From: Bacteroidales bacterium | Lineage (GTDB): Bacteria > Bacteroidota > Bacteroidia > Bacteroidales > WCHB1-69 | Length of the DNA stretch: 33,914 bases | NCBI GenBank assembly: GCA_031272415.1 | Contig: JAISTU010000127.1 | Span: forward strand, 1-33,914 | Reading direction: 5' to 3' | Notes under the pieces: model-generated | The model's database searches: none | What the model was told of the DNA's origin: nothing | The model's input: the letters and a program-made list of their open reading frames with translations, nothing else | In this document: in pieces, positions 3,836 to 27,032 of the stretch | Position numbering within the stretch: position 1 is the first letter of the stretch | How the letters are laid out: every line of letters starts with the position of its first letter | Program-made: the position numbers and the translations under genes

Positions 3836-5389
3836 ATGAAACAAAACAGTATATCGCAAACGCAGGATACAGAATTGTTGTTGCAGATGCAGCAAAAGAT
3901 TATGCCTCAGCATCTTTTGTTGATGAAGTTGCTGCAAGTACCCGCAGCCTCTTTGGAAGAGCGTATTGATGAAGAGTTGGAGGAAAATCCGGCACTTGAA
4001 ATAGCAACAGAGGACGAAAATGCTGATGATTTATCGGAAAATACTGATTTTCAAGTAAATGAGAACGCCGAAGAGTCGCCATCCGAATATGAACAAGGCG
4101 ATATTGCAGAAGAGACAGGCACTAATTCTGATTTGTCGCTTGAAGATTATTTGCCTGATGATTTCTCCCAAGAGACAGATTATGCACCTTATGCAGGGGG
4201 GAACGATAGAGAAGAAAAAAACTACCAATATGAACGCTATCTTTCTCATTCTGAATCTGTTCAGGATATTTTGGTGAGACAATTAGACCTGTTGGATTTG
4301 TCAAAAGAAGACCGAGATTTATCTTATTTTTTGATTGGAAATATTGACACAAACGGCTATCTTACTCGTGCGTTGTCCGATATTGTGAATGATTTGCTTT
4401 TTACGTCCAATATTTCGACAACGGTTGAGCATTTGGAGTATCTTTTGACGCATGTTGTGCAACAATTAGACCCGCCCGGTGTAGGGGCAAGAAATTTGCA
4501 GGAAAGTTTGCTCATCCAATTGCACCGACTTGAAAAAGGGAAAAATGATAAACTTAATAACTTGGCAATCAACATTATACAAAATGCTTTTGATGATTTT
4601 ATATCTCATTTTTATCAAAAAGTAAGCAAAAAAACAGATTGTACAGAGGCTCAAATTGAGGAGGTAAAACAGTACCTTTCGGCTTTAAATCCAAAACCGT
4701 TTATGGGATTGGATGATGCTGAAAATGCGTATATTACACCCGATTTTATTGTAACTTATAACCAAAAAACGGACACTTTGGAGTGCAGTTTGCCGATGGA
4801 AAATTTGCCTCCTTTGCGAGTGGGACTGCAATATAAAAAAATGTATGGAAATTTGCATAACAACCAAATGTTGAGCCCAAAAGATAAAAAAGCAGCCATT
4901 GAATTTGTCCGTCAAAAATTGAATGCTGCCAAATGGTTTATAGATGCACTTTCCCAGCGAAATCAGACGCTTTTCAATGTAATTTCGGCTATTGCTAATC
5001 ATCAACGTGATTTTTTCTTAACAGGGGAAGAAGATAGAATTAAACCATTGATTTACAAAGATATAGCAACAGAAATTAAAGTAGATATTTCCACCATTTC
5101 GCGAGCCACACGACATAAATATGTATTGACCGATTATGGTGTATATCCTTTGAAATTCTTTTTTACGGAAGCCGTTGGAGCAGAGGAAGGTAGCGAATTG
5201 ACGGCTTACGAAATCAAAAAACATCTTACGGAAATTATTGCCCAAGAAGACCCCAAAAAGCCTCTCAATGACATTGAAATTTGCGAAAAATTAAAAGAAA
5301 GAGGCTGCAATATTGCCCGCAGGACGGTCGCAAAATACAGAGAACGACTGCATATTCCTACTGCAAGATACCGTACAAATAATTCATAA
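3836..5389 (+). CDS. rpoN: RNA polymerase sigma-54 factor
   Basis: Gln/Leu-rich region I, ELEENPALE, LDPPGVGARNLQE, DISTISR HTH, RpoN box ARRTVAKYRE. Confidence 0.97.
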   Translation: MKQNSISQTQDTELLLQMQQKIMPQHLLLMKLLQVPAASLEERIDEELEENPALEIATEDENADDLSENTDFQVNENAEESPSEYEQGDIAEETGTNSDLSLEDYLPDDFSQETDYAPYAGGNDREEKNYQYERYLSHSESVQDILVRQLDLLDLSKEDRDLSYFLIGNIDTNGYLTRALSDIVNDLLFTSNISTTVEHLEYLLTHVVQQLDPPGVGARNLQESLLIQLHRLEKGKNDKLNNLAINIIQNAFDDFISHFYQKVSKKTDCTEAQIEEVKQYLSALNPKPFMGLDDAENAYITPDFIVTYNQKTDTLECSLPMENLPPLRVGLQYKKMYGNLHNNQMLSPKDKKAAIEFVRQKLNAAKWFIDALSQRNQTLFNVISAIANHQRDFFLTGEEDRIKPLIYKDIATEIKVDISTISRATRHKYVLTDYGVYPLKFFFTEAVGAEEGSELTAYEIKKHLTEIIAQEDPKKPLNDIEICEKLKERGCNIARRTVAKYRERLHIPTARYRTNNS

Positions 5390-5394
5390 TCAAT

Positions 5395-5829
5395 ATGTTA
5401 GACGATAATTATTTTATGAGATTAGCCCTTTTGGAGGCACAAAAAGCGATGCAAGCGAAGGAAATTCCTATCGGCTGTGTGATTGTTGCCAATGAAATTG
5501 TGATTGCTAAGGCACACAATTTAACCGAAACAATGTGCGATGTTACTGCTCATGCCGAAATGCAGGCTATCAACGCCGCTGCCGACAGTTTGGGGGCTAA
5601 ATACTTGAATGATTGCACTTTATATGTAACATTAGAGCCTTGTGTAATGTGTGTGGGGGCTACATTTTGGGCAAAATTAGGCAAAATTGTTTTTGGAGCA
5701 AAAGATGTAAAACAAAAAAATAATGAAGAAAAATTAAAATTCTTACATCCTCATACTCAATGGATTGGAGGTGTTTTGGAGAAAGAATGTCAGCAAATTT
5801 TACAACAATTTTTTGAAAAGAAAAGATAA
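5395..5829 (+). CDS. tadA: tRNA adenosine deaminase / nucleoside deaminase
   Basis: AHAE and LYVTLEPCVMC zinc motifs; EIPIGCVIV. Confidence 0.9.
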   Translation: MLDDNYFMRLALLEAQKAMQAKEIPIGCVIVANEIVIAKAHNLTETMCDVTAHAEMQAINAAADSLGAKYLNDCTLYVTLEPCVMCVGATFWAKLGKIVFGAKDVKQKNNEEKLKFLHPHTQWIGGVLEKECQQILQQFFEKKR

Positions 5830-5864
5830 ACACAATAATTTAAAAAAAATAACGTTATTCATTT

Positions 5865-8420
5865 ATGCAACAGCGATGTTTAGTAGTATTTATTTTGATG
5901 TCTTTGGCTTTTTCGGGTTTTGCAACTCACGAAAGAGCGGGGGAGATTACGTACAGACACATTTCAGGTCGAACGTACGAATTTACTATTACTACTTATG
6001 TATATACTGCCAGTCCTGCAAAACGTGAATACTTGGACATTGATTGGGGAGACGGCTCATCAAAAGAAACCGTTCCCCGCATATCAGAGACCTTTATTAC
6101 TAACGACATTACACGCAACATTTATATAGCAACACATACATTTAACAGCAATGGAACTTACACAGTATCAATGGAAGACCCCAATCGCAATGCAGACATT
6201 ATCAACATTCCTCGTTCTATTGAGGTGCCTTTTTATATTGAAACGGTTATTGTTATCAATGCTACATTTGGGGGCAATAGTTCGCCTGTTTTGACCAATC
6301 CGCCGGTAGATAATGGCTGTGTAGGGGCTATTTTTTATCACAATCCGGCGGCAGTGGATGCGGAAGGTGATAGTTTGGTGTATTCATTGATAAATTGCAA
6401 AGGCATTGATGGTGTGGATATTCCGGGTTATACATTGCCACTCGCCAATTCGATAACGATAGACCGTAACAGTGGTGATTTTGTGTGGGATGCACCCCGC
6501 GCACAAGGAGAATATAATATTGCTATTTTGATTGAAGAATATCGATCAGGAATTAAAATTGGGTCAATTATCAGGGATATGCAAATAAATATTGCAAGTT
6601 GTGATAATCAGCCTCCGTTGCTTGATTTACAGGTAGATACATGTATTACTGCCGGCGATAGTATTGCTTTTACGGTTACCGCACGCGATGATACGGCTCA
6701 ATTGATAACCCTTACCGCCAAGGGAGACGTGCTTTCGTGTCAATCGCCTGCCAAATTTCCCTCATCTACAACAGCAAAAGGGCAAGTCAGTGGCTTATTT
6801 TCATGGCAAACCAATTGCTCTCACATTCGCAAACAGCCTTACCATTTGACACTCAAAGCGGAAGATAATGGCTTTCCTGTACACTTATCTATTGTTAAAA
6901 CATTTAGTATCAAAGTATTAGCACCGCCTGTTGAAAATGTATTGGCAACTCCTTTGGGCAATTCTATTACAGTTACTTGGGATACCGCCATTTGCCTTGA
7001 CAATGCCAAAGGCTACAAAATATATCGCAGAGAAGACAGTTCGGGTTATATTTTGGAAAATTGTATCACCGGCGTGCCTCCCCAAACAGGCTACCAAATG
7101 ATTGGTATTGTGAGCATTGCAACTCACTCATTTACAGACAATAACAGTGGAAAAGGATTGCGACATGGGGTCAATTATTGCTATGTGGTGATAGTCTATT
7201 ACGGGGACGGCTCGGAAAGTTATATGTCAAATGAAGCCTGCACGGTACTTAAAAATGAAATTCCGATGATAACAAAAGTGAGCATTGACAAAACCGACCC
7301 TTTGACAGGTGTCGTTCAAACAGCATGGGAAGCACCAACAGATTTGGATTCTACACAATATCCGCCACCCTATCAATACCAAATTGAGCGGAGCATTAAC
7401 GACTCTTTGCATTTTTCAACTATCGCTGTTTTAGGTGGAAATGCGCGGCAATATATTGATAGTCTGCAAAATACGCAAGATAACATTTTCTATTATCGTG
7501 TTAATTTGCGGCTTTTGGCGGATACGTCTGTCGCCTTGTATTCCGATGCAGCCTCTTCTCCTTTTTTACAAATAGAAAGTTCTGATTGTCAATTGATTAT
7601 GAATTGGAAAGTGGAAACAATTTGGAAAAATTATCAATACATTATTTACAGATACAACCCGCTTACCTCACTTTATGATTCTATTGGGAGCACTGAAAAT
7701 CAAGAGTTTATAGATACAGGTTTGACCAATGGTGTCAATTATTGTTACTATATCAAAACGGTTGGCGAATATGGAGATACTTCTTTGCCACATCCGCTGC
7801 TCAATTTATCACAAATAGTTTGCCAAACACCCATTGACAATATGCCTCCTTGTCCGCCACAGTTGAGTGGAGATGGAAATTGTTCACAAGTTGCGTTAAA
7901 GTGGTCATACTCAATCGATTGCAGACAAGCGGATATTGACAAAGTATATATTTGGTATAAACCTGAATATAAAGGTGAATATACTTTGATTGACAGTGTA
8001 AAATATCCGACAGATAACTACTTGTCTATCAATGATTTAATGGTTGTAGGTTGTTTTAAAATTATTGCCATTGATACTAACGGAAATATAGGGCAAAGCA
8101 GTGAAGAGTTGTGCTTTGAGCCGGATTGCAATCATTATCGATTGCCTAATGTATTTACGCCAAACGGAGACGGCATCAATGATTTGTTTGAACCGTTTCC
8201 TTACACAAATATAGAACAAATAGAAATCAATATCTATAACCGTTGGGGTGAAAAAATGTTTTACACACAAAATCCTGATATTCAATGGGATGGAGTAAAT
8301 ATGATGACACATCAGCCGTGTTCTGATGGTGTTTATTTTTACGTTTGTGCAGTAGAAGAAAAAACACTTAACGGATTGAAAAAGAAATATTTAACAGGTT
8401 CGATAACCATTTTAAGATAA
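5865..8420 (+). CDS. Secreted Cys-rich beta-sandwich (Fn3-like) protein with T9SS type B C-terminal domain
   Basis: Signal peptide, ATHERAGEITY N-terminus, C-terminal LPNVFTPNGDGINDLF...IYNRWGE...WDG...GVYFY...GSITILR. Confidence 0.9.
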   Translation: MQQRCLVVFILMSLAFSGFATHERAGEITYRHISGRTYEFTITTYVYTASPAKREYLDIDWGDGSSKETVPRISETFITNDITRNIYIATHTFNSNGTYTVSMEDPNRNADIINIPRSIEVPFYIETVIVINATFGGNSSPVLTNPPVDNGCVGAIFYHNPAAVDAEGDSLVYSLINCKGIDGVDIPGYTLPLANSITIDRNSGDFVWDAPRAQGEYNIAILIEEYRSGIKIGSIIRDMQINIASCDNQPPLLDLQVDTCITAGDSIAFTVTARDDTAQLITLTAKGDVLSCQSPAKFPSSTTAKGQVSGLFSWQTNCSHIRKQPYHLTLKAEDNGFPVHLSIVKTFSIKVLAPPVENVLATPLGNSITVTWDTAICLDNAKGYKIYRREDSSGYILENCITGVPPQTGYQMIGIVSIATHSFTDNNSGKGLRHGVNYCYVVIVYYGDGSESYMSNEACTVLKNEIPMITKVSIDKTDPLTGVVQTAWEAPTDLDSTQYPPPYQYQIERSINDSLHFSTIAVLGGNARQYIDSLQNTQDNIFYYRVNLRLLADTSVALYSDAASSPFLQIESSDCQLIMNWKVETIWKNYQYIIYRYNPLTSLYDSIGSTENQEFIDTGLTNGVNYCYYIKTVGEYGDTSLPHPLLNLSQIVCQTPIDNMPPCPPQLSGDGNCSQVALKWSYSIDCRQADIDKVYIWYKPEYKGEYTLIDSVKYPTDNYLSINDLMVVGCFKIIAIDTNGNIGQSSEELCFEPDCNHYRLPNVFTPNGDGINDLFEPFPYTNIEQIEINIYNRWGEKMFYTQNPDIQWDGVNMMTHQPCSDGVYFYVCAVEEKTLNGLKKKYLTGSITILR

Positions 8421-24982: not shown

Positions 24983-24993
24983 CAAAGATACAC
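24983..24993 (-). promoter_or_regulatory. -7 promoter element
   Basis: Reverse complement GTGTATCTTTG with (aattaaa/aattaag)n tract at 25003-25034. Confidence 0.78.
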
Positions 24994-25082
24994 CTTTTCG
25001 TCAATTAAAAATTAAAAATTAAGAATTAAGAGAGATGCATATTTTATTCTTTTTGGGGTCAATTATTATCATCGCATATAGG

Positions 25083-25134
25083 TTTATAATTGACCATAAG
25101 TATACTTTTTTTTGTATTTATGGTCAGTTATAAA
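25083..25134. repeat. 52-bp palindrome copy 1
   Basis: tttataattgaccataagt-N14-atttatggtcagttataaa. Confidence 0.95.
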
Positions 25135-25292
25135 AACAAGTTATTAAGTATAATTCTTTGATTTACAATACAATATGTTTATTACGAACTATGTCAAAAA
25201 TCATAATAAAAGTGAGATGTAAAACCTACCTCGTTTTGCTAACATATTGAAATGTGGAGCGTTTTTTCAGATTATTAGCATCTCTTGCAAGA

Positions 25293-25344
25293 TTTATAAT
25301 TGACCATAAGTATACTTTTTTTGGCACTTATGGTCAGTTATAAA
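25293..25344. repeat. 52-bp palindrome copy 2
   Basis: tttataattgaccataagt-N14-acttatggtcagttataaa. Confidence 0.95.
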
Positions 25345-25505
25345 AACAAGTTATTAAGTATAATCATTTGATTTACAATGTAATATGATTATTACGAACT
25401 ACGTCAAATTTATAATAAAAGTGAGATATAAACCCTACCTCGTTTTGCTAACATATTGAAATGTGGAGAGTTTTTATTTTCAGATTATTATTATCGCTTG
25501 CAAGA

Positions 25506-25557
25506 TTTATAATTGACCATAAGTATACTTTTTTTGGCACTTATGGTCAATTATAAA
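25506..25557. repeat. 52-bp palindrome copy 3 (perfect 19-bp arms; contains the ATPase stop codon)
   Basis: tttataattgaccataagt-atactttttttggc-acttatggtcaattataaa; the TAA at 25551-25553 lies in the right arm. Confidence 0.97.
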
Positions 25558-26972
25558 AATATGTCATCAAGCGTAATTTCCTTTTGTACAATGCTATAAC
25601 GCTTATTATGAACTACTCCAAATGTTGTAATAAAAGTGAGATGTAAAGCCTTCTTTGTTTTGCTAACATACTCAAATGCAGCGAGTTTGTTCCTAAGGTT
25701 GGCTTCATACGCTTTTGAAATGATAAATGGCGAGTTAGAAAATTTCATTTCGCAAATGTTTATCACGCCGTCTTTGCGGTCTATCAGCAAATCTATTTGG
25801 CAACCATCGTAATTATCCGTTTTGTCTGTTGCCCATGCTGACACGCCGGATTGGACGCCGGAGATACCAAGTGTGCGTTTTATTTCGCTAACATGCTGTA
25901 AAACAAGCGATTCGAAGGCATATCCTGCCCACGTATTCCGCAACGGAGTATTGAGGCTGTTTGTCCAAAAATTCTCATCTTTGCTATTATAATTCTCCAA
26001 AAAGTTGAAATAAAATAGGGTATAGGCATCAAGCAACTGATAGAGGCGGTCTCGCTTTTTTTTGTGCAAAGCATTGTAAGAACGGATAAAACCACAACTT
26101 TCAAGGTTAATCAGAATTTCGGTCAGTTCTCTGCCACTTTTTTTGGTAATCTCGCTAATTTCGCCACGTGTTAAACCTTTGTTTTTGAGGCTCAAAGCAG
26201 AAACTGTTGCCACATAATTTTCCGATTTTCTAAACAGTGAGGCATATAGGTTTGAAAATTCGTTCTTCAATTTAGCGTTCTGCTTAAAGCACAGATTATC
26301 AATATTTTGCGACAAACTTAATCCTTTTTCAAACAAACTAAGATAATATGGAATTCCCCCAAAAATCATATATGCTTCGGCAATTTCCTGCCTGCCAAGC
26401 ATGATTTTATGCGACAAAAAATATTGTTCTGTTTCGCTTATATTGAAAGGTTGCAAGAAAAGCGTGGCAGTCAATCGATTATGTAAACCGCCATGATTGT
26501 TGATAATTTTGTTCGTAATCCACGAAGTCGCTGAACCGCAAATTATCAGCATAATATCATCTCTTCCACAAGCCCACCCGTTCCAAAAATGTTCCAATGC
26601 TGTTAAAAAGCCTGCTCTCGGAGTGTCTAACCACGAAATTTCATCAATAAAGACCACCTTTCGCTTTGTGCGAGACTTTTTCAACTGTGCAATAAGTTGC
26701 TCGAAGGCGTACAACCAGTTTTTTGCGACCGGCAATTGCTTGTTAAAACAGCGGTTGAGCGTCAAATTAAAGTTGGCAAGTTGCGTTTTAGTGTCTGTGT
26801 TTGCCAATCCTGCTAAGTCAAATATCAGCCTGTTGCCAAATAACTGTCTGATTAAAAACGTTTTACCAACACGGCGCCTCCCACATACCGCTATAAATTC
26901 TGCATTTTCCGAATTATAAAGGTCAGTCAATTTTTGCGTTTCGCTTTGTCTTCCAATAATTTTCTTGTCCAT
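25551..26972 (-). CDS. ATP-binding protein: archaeal-type AAA ATPase, winged helix and DUF234/PD-(D/E)XK-like C-terminus
   Basis: Walker A GRRRVGKT, Walker B VVFIDE, ICGSATSW, wHTH GLTRGEISEIT...LINLESCGFI, WAGYAFE, QIDLLIDR...INICEMKF. Confidence 0.92.
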   Translation of the reverse strand: MDKKIIGRQSETQKLTDLYNSENAEFIAVCGRRRVGKTFLIRQLFGNRLIFDLAGLANTDTKTQLANFNLTLNRCFNKQLPVAKNWLYAFEQLIAQLKKSRTKRKVVFIDEISWLDTPRAGFLTALEHFWNGWACGRDDIMLIICGSATSWITNKIINNHGGLHNRLTATLFLQPFNISETEQYFLSHKIMLGRQEIAEAYMIFGGIPYYLSLFEKGLSLSQNIDNLCFKQNAKLKNEFSNLYASLFRKSENYVATVSALSLKNKGLTRGEISEITKKSGRELTEILINLESCGFIRSYNALHKKKRDRLYQLLDAYTLFYFNFLENYNSKDENFWTNSLNTPLRNTWAGYAFESLVLQHVSEIKRTLGISGVQSGVSAWATDKTDNYDGCQIDLLIDRKDGVINICEMKFSNSPFIISKAYEANLRNKLAAFEYVSKTKKALHLTFITTFGVVHNKRYSIVQKEITLDDIFL

Positions 26973-26980
26973 ACATCTCT

Positions 26981-27032
26981 TTTATAATTGACCATAAGTA
27001 TATAAAAAATAGCACTTATGGTCAGATATAAC
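26981..27032. repeat. 52-bp palindrome copy 4, 8 nt upstream of the ATPase start codon
   Basis: tttataattgaccataagt-atataaaaaatagc-acttatggtcagatataac; same 14-nt spacer length as copies 1-3. Confidence 0.95.

Follow-up and report, generated by a model that had tools for sequence, protein, structure and literature searches.

Results

A PDC-S27 gene accompanied by four copies of a palindrome

The stretch of DNA analyzed here (the window) comprises 33,914 nucleotides of a Bacteroidales bacterium (contig JAISTU010000127.1 of assembly GCA_031272415.1; 2,344,881 bases in 229 contigs, 98.8% complete; G000) and carries, on its minus strand, a gene of the PDC-S27 family together with four copies of a 52-bp palindrome, two of which lie at the two ends of the gene (Table 1). 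The 19-14-19 layout of arm, spacer, and arm is found in all four copies, with a spacer that is constant in length and variable in sequence. The plus-strand arm, TTTATAATTGACCATAAGT, is unchanged across the four copies, and the inverted arm departs from it at 2, 1, 0, and 3 positions in copies 1 to 4, respectively. An initial annotation, made from the letters of the window alone, had placed four palindromes at these positions with the same arm, a fixed 14-nt spacer, and variable spacer sequence, and had noted that they lack both integron attC boxes and the 11-6-11 dif layout; each of these statements held. The RYYYAAC and GTTRRRY boxes gave 0 matches in a regular expression search of both strands of the four palindromes and 8 nt on either side, and none of the four copies has the dif/XerCD layout.

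An 18-mer of the arm, allowing up to 3 mismatches, matched the window 8 times as compared to 0.09 matches expected from shuffled sequence, and 0 of 100 shuffles reached 8. Across the whole assembly, matches with up to 2 mismatches were confined to the S27 locus except for one lone 2-mismatch match on contig 11, and every palindromic copy in this genome lies at the S27 locus; the palindrome is therefore not a dispersed repetitive extragenic palindromic (REP) element or miniature inverted-repeat transposable element (MITE). The palindrome type of another S27 gene (L070) is likewise confined to S27 loci in five genomes (G057–G061). A genome-wide scatter independent of the gene family, which the initial annotation had named as evidence against its proposal, was thus not observed in G000 or in these five genomes, and REP- or MITE-type palindromes were ruled out on the same grounds.

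Other scans of the palindromes gave null results. The sole Rfam match was to a microRNA family far below threshold (23.8 bits versus 139), a chance match. A terminator scan returned none at the palindrome sites, in a sigma-70 promoter and terminator scan that is uninformative for a Bacteroidota genome, and the GC profile of the S27 unit was indistinguishable from that of its flanks. A 17-mer of the arm had at least 119 single-arm matches in metagenomes, with the partner arm present in 0 of 80 inspected loci, a pattern too short for that setting. Among the sequencing runs listed as containing the stretch, two are DNA runs from two studies and none is an RNA run; contigs of both show the gene along with some of the repeat region. 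In one run (X2), a short contig matching window positions 25503-25558 carries the same palindrome minus one base in the T run, at about ten times the depth of the organism; there the palindrome adjoins an apparent diverged S27 3′ end, with flanks too short for interpretation. Just ahead of palindrome 1, positions 24987-25127 form an A/T-rich low-complexity stretch (aattaaaaatt-type repeats), where the summed depth of contigs is very high in the two metagenome runs, probably reflecting cross-matching from many organisms.

Table 1. Features of the PDC-S27 locus in the window
Feature	Position	Strand	Description
Palindrome copy 1	25083..25134		1 of 4; 2 arm mismatches; last element ahead of the Zn_ribbon_2 gene
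Tandem-repeat unit 1	25135..25292	-	Decayed 3′-end copy; 47% protein identity to residues 417-469; 1 TAG and 1 TAA inside
Palindrome copy 2	25293..25344		1 arm mismatch
Tandem-repeat unit 2	25345..25505	-	~30-nt linker and decayed copy of the last ~45-50 codons; in-frame stops
Palindrome copy 3 (downstream)	25506..25557		Perfect 19-nt arms; TAA stop of the gene inside the right (plus-strand) arm
PDC-S27 gene	25551..26972	-	473 aa; ATPase, winged helix, and PD-(D/E)xK-type C-terminal domain
Palindrome copy 4 (upstream)	26981..27032		19-nt arm, 14-nt A-run spacer, 19-nt arm with 2-3 mismatches; ends 8 nt 5′ of the ATG

Domain architecture of the PDC-S27 protein

The initial annotation, which knew of no described system with this layout, did not link the gene to a catalogued family. 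Its product is a PADLOC phage-defense candidate, with a full-length match to the PDC-S27 hidden Markov model PDLC04984 (E 5.2e-195, 646.8 bits, residues 2-472 of 473). A published survey presents PDC-S27 as a fusion of an ATPase with a PD-(D/E)XK domain and as an unvalidated defense candidate that is abundant in both Bacteria (4562 instances) and Archaea (3503) (PMC12988326). Four candidates were protective in a study that reportedly included one S27 protein, tested in Escherichia coli against phages T7, T5, and T4, and the S27 protein was not one of the four (10.1101/2024.09.26.614923). In the preprint from which the PDC families derive (10.1101/2024.01.29.577857), the main text contains 0 occurrences of "palindrom" or "inverted repeat", and we found no description of these palindromes in the literature searched, supplements aside, on PDC-S27, DUF234, PF01637, and guilt by embedding.

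Three domains were delimited, comprising an AAA+/STAND-like ATPase (about residues 1-245), a winged helix (250-313), and a PD-(D/E)xK-type C-terminal domain (375-473). Pfam identified ATPase_2 (PF01637, E 8.8e-13) along with related AAA models, and an NCBIfam scan of the protein matched no family. When the window protein was aligned with 78 relatives, the residues of Walker A (G31..K37-T38) and Walker B (D110-E111), as well as D394 and E408-x-K410, were invariant in 79 of 79 sequences. The AlphaFold model (predicted local distance difference test 92.1, predicted template modeling score 0.89) consists of the ATPase and an alpha/beta C-terminal domain, with a canonical winged helix between them that is formed by helices 250-260, 269-276, and 280-292 followed by two strands. 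In structural comparison, residues 1-326 matched two archaeal ATPases, 2qen (Z 21.2) and 2fna (Z 20.9), and also the NB-ARC modules of plant NLR proteins (Z about 16) and Orc1/Cdc6 bound to DNA (2qby_A, Z 14.7). For the putative nuclease domain at the C terminus, the Pfam matches were weak and below their cut-offs (DUF234, E 0.0098; DUF4143, E 0.024). A homodimer prediction scored 0.00 and was not used as evidence either way.

An upstream palindrome is characteristic of the family

A scan of genome contigs found at least 576 relatives, and 80 loci at 48–63% identity were surveyed, nearly all of the named relatives being Bacteroidales. Already in a first sample, most full-length homologues had their own upstream palindrome. 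Palindromes were scored as arm length minus twice the number of mismatches, with loops of 6–26 nt and a cut-off of at least 11. By this measure, 67 of 78 homologous loci exhibited a palindrome within 150 nt upstream of the gene, as compared to 21 of 879 windows taken elsewhere in those loci and 1 of 78 upstream regions after shuffling. The prediction of the initial annotation that each homologue would be flanked by its own palindrome pair was thus borne out on the upstream side; on both sides, the same type was found at only 16 of the 74 loci with an upstream palindrome that were compared.

The palindromes of relatives have arms of 13–26 nt and loops mostly of 11–19 nt with an A or T run, and several loci carry two palindromes 53–63 bp apart. 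The commonest half-site is TATAAT-N3-GCCAAATC; other clades exhibit GATAATCTGCTGCTAAGTC, TATAATCAGCCATAACTC, GGAGCTGTAACT, and others. Family members on Butyrivibrio, Emticicia, and Segatella plasmids also have palindromes or repeats upstream with a related half-site core (TATA(A)T-N3-GCC-AAA), the half-sites facing the opposite way in Butyrivibrio. Repeats likewise precede the ATG in copies from a Wolbachia WO phage and from plasmids of Paracaedimonas and Malaciobacter. The family has a wide horizontal reach; its genes were met in the head-gene region of a WO prophage (L252) and on plasmids of Firmicutes, Alphaproteobacteria, Campylobacterota, and Bacteroidota (L250-L255).

Position of the palindrome relative to the promoter

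The −7 promoter consensus of Bacteroidetes is TAnnTTTG. An exact match to this box within 70 nt of the ATG was found at 51 of 66 loci with an upstream palindrome, as compared to 34 of 1349 control windows. At 45 of those 51 loci, the box lies 3′ of the palindrome (median gap 15 nt, range 4–86) and most often ends 21 nt ahead of the ATG; at 4 it lies at the junction of the loop and the right arm, and at 2 inside or upstream of the palindrome. Among the 66 loci examined, an inverted repeat therefore abuts the core promoter at 45, with the box following the palindrome, and overlaps it at 4. In this arrangement, the right arm covers the −33 region or the −7 box, and hence the position where a repressor would sit. 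The genes next to S27 vary by locus and are often convergent downstream. Since no other regulator travels with the gene and its neighbors vary, the sole candidate binder common to all loci is the winged-helix protein.

Downstream copies and the edges of the S27 unit

A second palindrome of the same type follows the stop codon at the 16 loci counted above, and L041 and L043 likewise have a family-type palindrome downstream. The direct repeat shared by the two ends is the palindrome module only (19–120 bp, most 40–120). Its upstream copy ends 5–80 nt ahead of the ATG (8 nt in the window), its downstream copy begins at −9 to +42 of the stop, and the two are 85% to 100% identical. Because neighbors differ between loci and are often convergent, the downstream copy serves no other gene.

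Edges were mapped by pairwise blastn between loci. L047 and L048 are 97.6% identical over 1553 bp spanning palindrome, gene, and palindrome, from the outer edge of the first palindrome to about 12–20 nt beyond the second, with unrelated flanks. Six loci (L070, L073, L084, L087, L091, and L094) have in common a 1703-bp unit of two palindromes, gene, and two palindromes, which is joined to five different left flanks, starting at or within 1–2 bases of the first base of the first palindrome, and to two right flanks. Within the large clade, at 80–91% identity, most pairs break near −90 (commonest exactly −90), which is the outer edge of the palindrome, and the 3′ break lies no more than about 16 nt from the stop. 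These flank comparisons revealed no target-site duplication at the unit ends. The L048 unit is flanked by open reading frames (L048:851-2203 and 3982-6144) whose N termini we take to resemble an integrase and an OLD/Gabija-type ATPase; given these patterns, the unit would lie in a mobile defense region.

Paralogue expansion and apparent allele replacement

Of 41 genomes belonging to the same family and order, G000 among them, 13 contained a match to S27, and some contained many. A 2.9-Mb metagenome-assembled genome (G057, the genome of L070 and L099) exhibits 25 matches, about 20 of them full-length, an expansion unusually large for a defense candidate; G064 has 6 matches and G021 has 9. The 16 full-length G057 paralogues examined are 33–60% identical to one another, and 15 have an upstream palindrome. 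The half-sites listed vary from one of the 16 to another, and 7 of these paralogues have their own type again downstream.

The single extra L070-type site in G057 (contig C192) lies at the 3′ end of another S27 gene that is about 50% identical to the others. This allele (L286, 8578-10072) has different upstream palindromes and the same ABC-F flank as L084, L087, and L091, and nucleotide homology begins 5 nt ahead of the stop, within the palindrome. The arrangement suggests that one allele replaced another at a fixed site, with the old palindrome retained.

Symmetric variation of the palindrome arms

The two arms were compared in 24 aligned palindromes of the large clade, with 16 pairs per palindrome. 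Pairing was kept in 94.3% of the cells, and 6 of the 16 pairs had changed on both sides. Cells changed on both sides numbered 25, as compared to 7.5 in shuffles (0 of 500 as high) and 2–9 in slid controls. One position is T:A in 12 sequences, A:T in 7, and C:G in 5, with none unpaired. Arm mismatches exhibited no clear sense-strand G:U bias (25 G:T, 16 A:C, and 47 other; n = 88).

The initial annotation had predicted that arm sequence would covary with winged-helix residues. Arm types do differ by clade and by paralogue, in only loose agreement with this prediction; L069 and L074 contradict it, having identical winged-helix residues 262-312 and arms that read TTAGCC and TTTGCC, respectively, on both sides. 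When arms and recognition helices were compared by eye, phylogeny was a confounder and the variable triplet spoke against covariation. Between L085:2330-2520 and L089:2330-2520, the 12-nt loop is exactly reverse-complemented within syntenic flanks of about 97% identity, a clean natural "flip" of the hairpin loop. Template switching at quasi-palindromes can yield both symmetric changes and loop flips, as a mutational effect rather than a function. Two possible sources of the arm symmetry could thus be use of the palindrome as a hairpin or cruciform and template switching of this kind.

Decayed gene ends between the downstream palindromes

The initial annotation had treated the palindromes beyond the gene as independent sites, a view that we revise. 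Copies 1–3 are part of a tandem repeat with a period of 210/213 bp, which accounts for their 210- and 213-bp spacing. On the gene strand, the repeat unit consists of a palindrome, a linker of ~30 nt, and a diverged copy of the last ~45–50 codons running into the next palindrome, so that the order reads palindrome 4, gene, palindrome 3, remnant, palindrome 2, remnant, palindrome 1. Over 119 nt, the two remnants are closer to each other (92%) than to the live gene (71%). The window thus holds one live S27 unit and two duplicated remnants. The extra palindromes and decayed 3′ ends would be leftovers of an earlier tandem or replaced S27 copy, in which deletion would have begun at a palindrome and one remnant unit would later have been duplicated by unequal exchange between palindromes. 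Gene remnants beside palindromes are uncommon; besides those of the window, they were met in G039, at 2 of 79 loci, and in G019, whose S27 gene is joined at about codon 400 to a palindrome and a half-palindrome.

Genomic neighborhood

The S27 unit is inserted between housekeeping genes, tatC and a Zn-ribbon gene. On one side lie AcrB, an AraC regulator, PEMT, and Zn_ribbon_2, and on the other TatC, PfkB, a rhodanese, and RNase Y; further out are NusB, sigma-54, RimM, S16, DprA, and SufBD. Type IX secretion system sorting domains, together with the mostly Bacteroidales named relatives, assign the organism to Bacteroidota. No integrase, transposase, or recombinase family was detected by Pfam in the 25 of 27 window open reading frames of at least 130 aa that were scanned, in agreement with the absence of a recombinase or transposase remarked on in the initial annotation. 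The nearest genomes compared are uninformative about an empty site, as their TatC is only 40–56% identical and no Zn-ribbon or PEMT gene lies beside tatC. No contig of the two DNA runs bridged an empty site; the contig joints listed have short sides and probably derive from related genes of other organisms. Elsewhere in the source genome (G000:C216:1887-2702) is a second TatC-like frame, 49% identical and with one in-frame TGA, which could be a paralogue, a pseudogene, or bin contamination.

Discussion

A proposed self-repressed unit bounded by its own operator

We propose, with moderate confidence, that PDC-S27 forms a self-contained single-gene unit in which the palindrome would serve both as the operator for the protein's own winged helix and as the boundary of the unit. 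The palindrome would belong to the gene rather than to a site of the host. We infer that the winged helix, acting as a dimer or within a larger AAA+ assembly, would occupy both of the long half-sites, which overlap or adjoin the core promoter, and so hold in check the expression of a potentially harmful ATPase-nuclease. Binding by a sequence-specific protein would fit the invariant core of the arms (GCCAAAT, with an outer AT), the recurrence of the half-site core across phyla, and the distance to the −7 box. The same palindrome would be the physical edge of a unit exchanged between genomes, a coincidence of edges that is observed in relatives. With a second copy after the stop, the gene would be bracketed by direct repeats of the palindrome module. 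Gain, duplication, deletion, and replacement of units all correlate with this edge.

Several observations weigh against this proposal. The symmetric arm changes point to base pairing or homogenization of the arms, rather than to coevolution with a protein at those positions, and half-sites of 16–19 bp exceed what one winged helix usually reads. No scored upstream palindrome was found at 11 of 78 loci, and distant paralogues (24–29% identity) have no consistent palindrome, which limits the rule to the ~470-aa subfamily. The window's own upstream copy has no exact TAnnTTTG box, the equivalent position reading TATACTTA; at 8 nt from the ATG and with no exact box, this copy is atypical and may be differently regulated or poorly expressed. 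The downstream copy, present at only 16 of 74 loci, is not required. Sharp ends of homology at 80–90% identity may mark the end of selection rather than of a mobile unit, an objection that only the pairs at 95–98% identity escape, and some of the flank combinations in metagenome-assembled genomes could be assembly chimeras across the repeat.

Alternative interpretations

A more far-reaching idea, which we consider unlikely, is that PDC-S27 might be an autonomous one-gene mobile element whose protein would recognize and cut its own palindrome, the site also repressing the gene. The palindrome, possibly cut as an extruded hairpin or cruciform, would then give rise to insertion, tandem amplification, and allele replacement. 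If so, the embedding of S27 inside other defense systems, on which its standing as a defense candidate is based, would partly reflect mobility.

It is rather improbable, in our estimation, that the palindrome is mainly a recombination site in the form of a single-strand hairpin or cruciform, comparable to attC sites or the ends of IS200/IS605 elements, with S27 or a host enzyme moving the cassette and the promoter position being secondary. The compensatory changes in 6 of 16 arm pairs and the reverse-complemented loop of L085 and L089 fit such a site, as do unit edges at palindromes, the allele replaced at a retained palindrome, the stop codon embedded in a palindrome, and about 20 copies in one genome. 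However, template switching at quasi-palindromes could also explain the symmetric changes and loop flips, and neither the gap to the −7 box (median 15 nt, range 4–86) nor a half-site core common to different phyla is expected of a structure-only site. Most loci have a single copy, the window scan revealed no recombinase, attC boxes are absent, and, to our knowledge, a PD-(D/E)xK nuclease alone cannot perform strand transfer.

We judge it improbable as well that the downstream copies are merely debris of tandem duplication and palindrome-stimulated deletion, such that only the promoter-proximal palindrome matters. The window itself, with palindrome and 3′-remnant units carrying in-frame stops, and the half-palindrome fused into a gene in G019 are consistent with this account, as are L094, which has lost one of the downstream palindromes that related loci carry, and the absence of a downstream copy at 58 of 74 loci. 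In contrast, in at least ten separate lineages a downstream copy starts at −9 to +42 of the stop with neither promoter nor gene remnant, extra gene fragments occur at only 2 of 79 loci, and the 100% identity of the upstream and downstream copies in L075 and L098 argues for recent, repeated generation or homogenization.

Finally, transcription insulators or terminator-like RNA hairpins shielding a transferable gene from read-through at both ends, a notion prompted by hairpins at both gene ends and the many convergent downstream neighbors, are very doubtful, since most upstream copies precede the −7 box and so lie outside the gene's own transcript, stems of 16–19 bp with loops of 11–15 nt and no T tail are unlike intrinsic terminators and were not called by the terminator scan, arm mismatches have no clear G:U bias, and the Rfam match was only sub-threshold.

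Relation to known systems

The protein belongs to PDC-S27 by its full-length match, and the literature consulted on that family, supplements aside, does not describe palindromes, operators, or cassette edges. Restriction-modification controller (C) proteins and winged-helix regulators of the BrxR/CapW type act on palindromic operators of defense genes. As in those systems, an inverted repeat, sometimes as two tandem sites, lies at the promoter of a potentially toxic defense gene and travels along with it. In contrast to them, the DNA-binding domain of S27 would be within the effector polypeptide itself, the half-sites are 16–19 bp long and separated by an A/T run, and one and the same site additionally flanks the gene and delimits the unit. 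Integron attC cassettes are similar in being single open reading frames, found in many contexts, that are tightly bounded by an imperfect palindrome in which pairing is kept and sequence varies. The S27 palindrome differs from these in having no RYYYAAC/GTTRRRY boxes and no IntI or other recombinase in the window scan, in being specific to one gene family, and in lying on the promoter side of a gene with its own promoter.

In some insertion sequences, the transposase promoter lies within the terminal inverted repeat, the end doubling as an autoregulatory binding site, and one genome can hold many copies, as observed for S27. Unlike such elements, the S27 protein has no DDE, HUH, or tyrosine/serine recombinase domain, and its doubled ends are direct repeats of a palindrome. 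An element of the IS200/IS605 type was ruled out, as the sole gene between the palindromes encodes the S27 ATPase-nuclease, not TnpA (HUH) or TnpB. Archaeal Orc1/Cdc6 proteins likewise combine AAA+ and winged-helix domains and have inverted repeats, their origin-recognition boxes, around an A/T-rich center beside their own gene; S27 differs in its C-terminal nuclease-type domain and in reaching ~20 copies per genome, and nothing observed points to a replication origin.

PDC-S27 is one of the most common unvalidated defense candidates, and a private palindrome provides a predicted DNA ligand for biochemical and structural work on it. The about 16–20 orthogonal pairs of protein and site in one genome would be a natural set for tests of specificity. 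The palindrome also constitutes a sequence signature by which unit boundaries, remnants, and replacement events may be recognized across the family. As a caution for the discovery of defense systems, guilt by embedding may pick up self-inserting cassettes.

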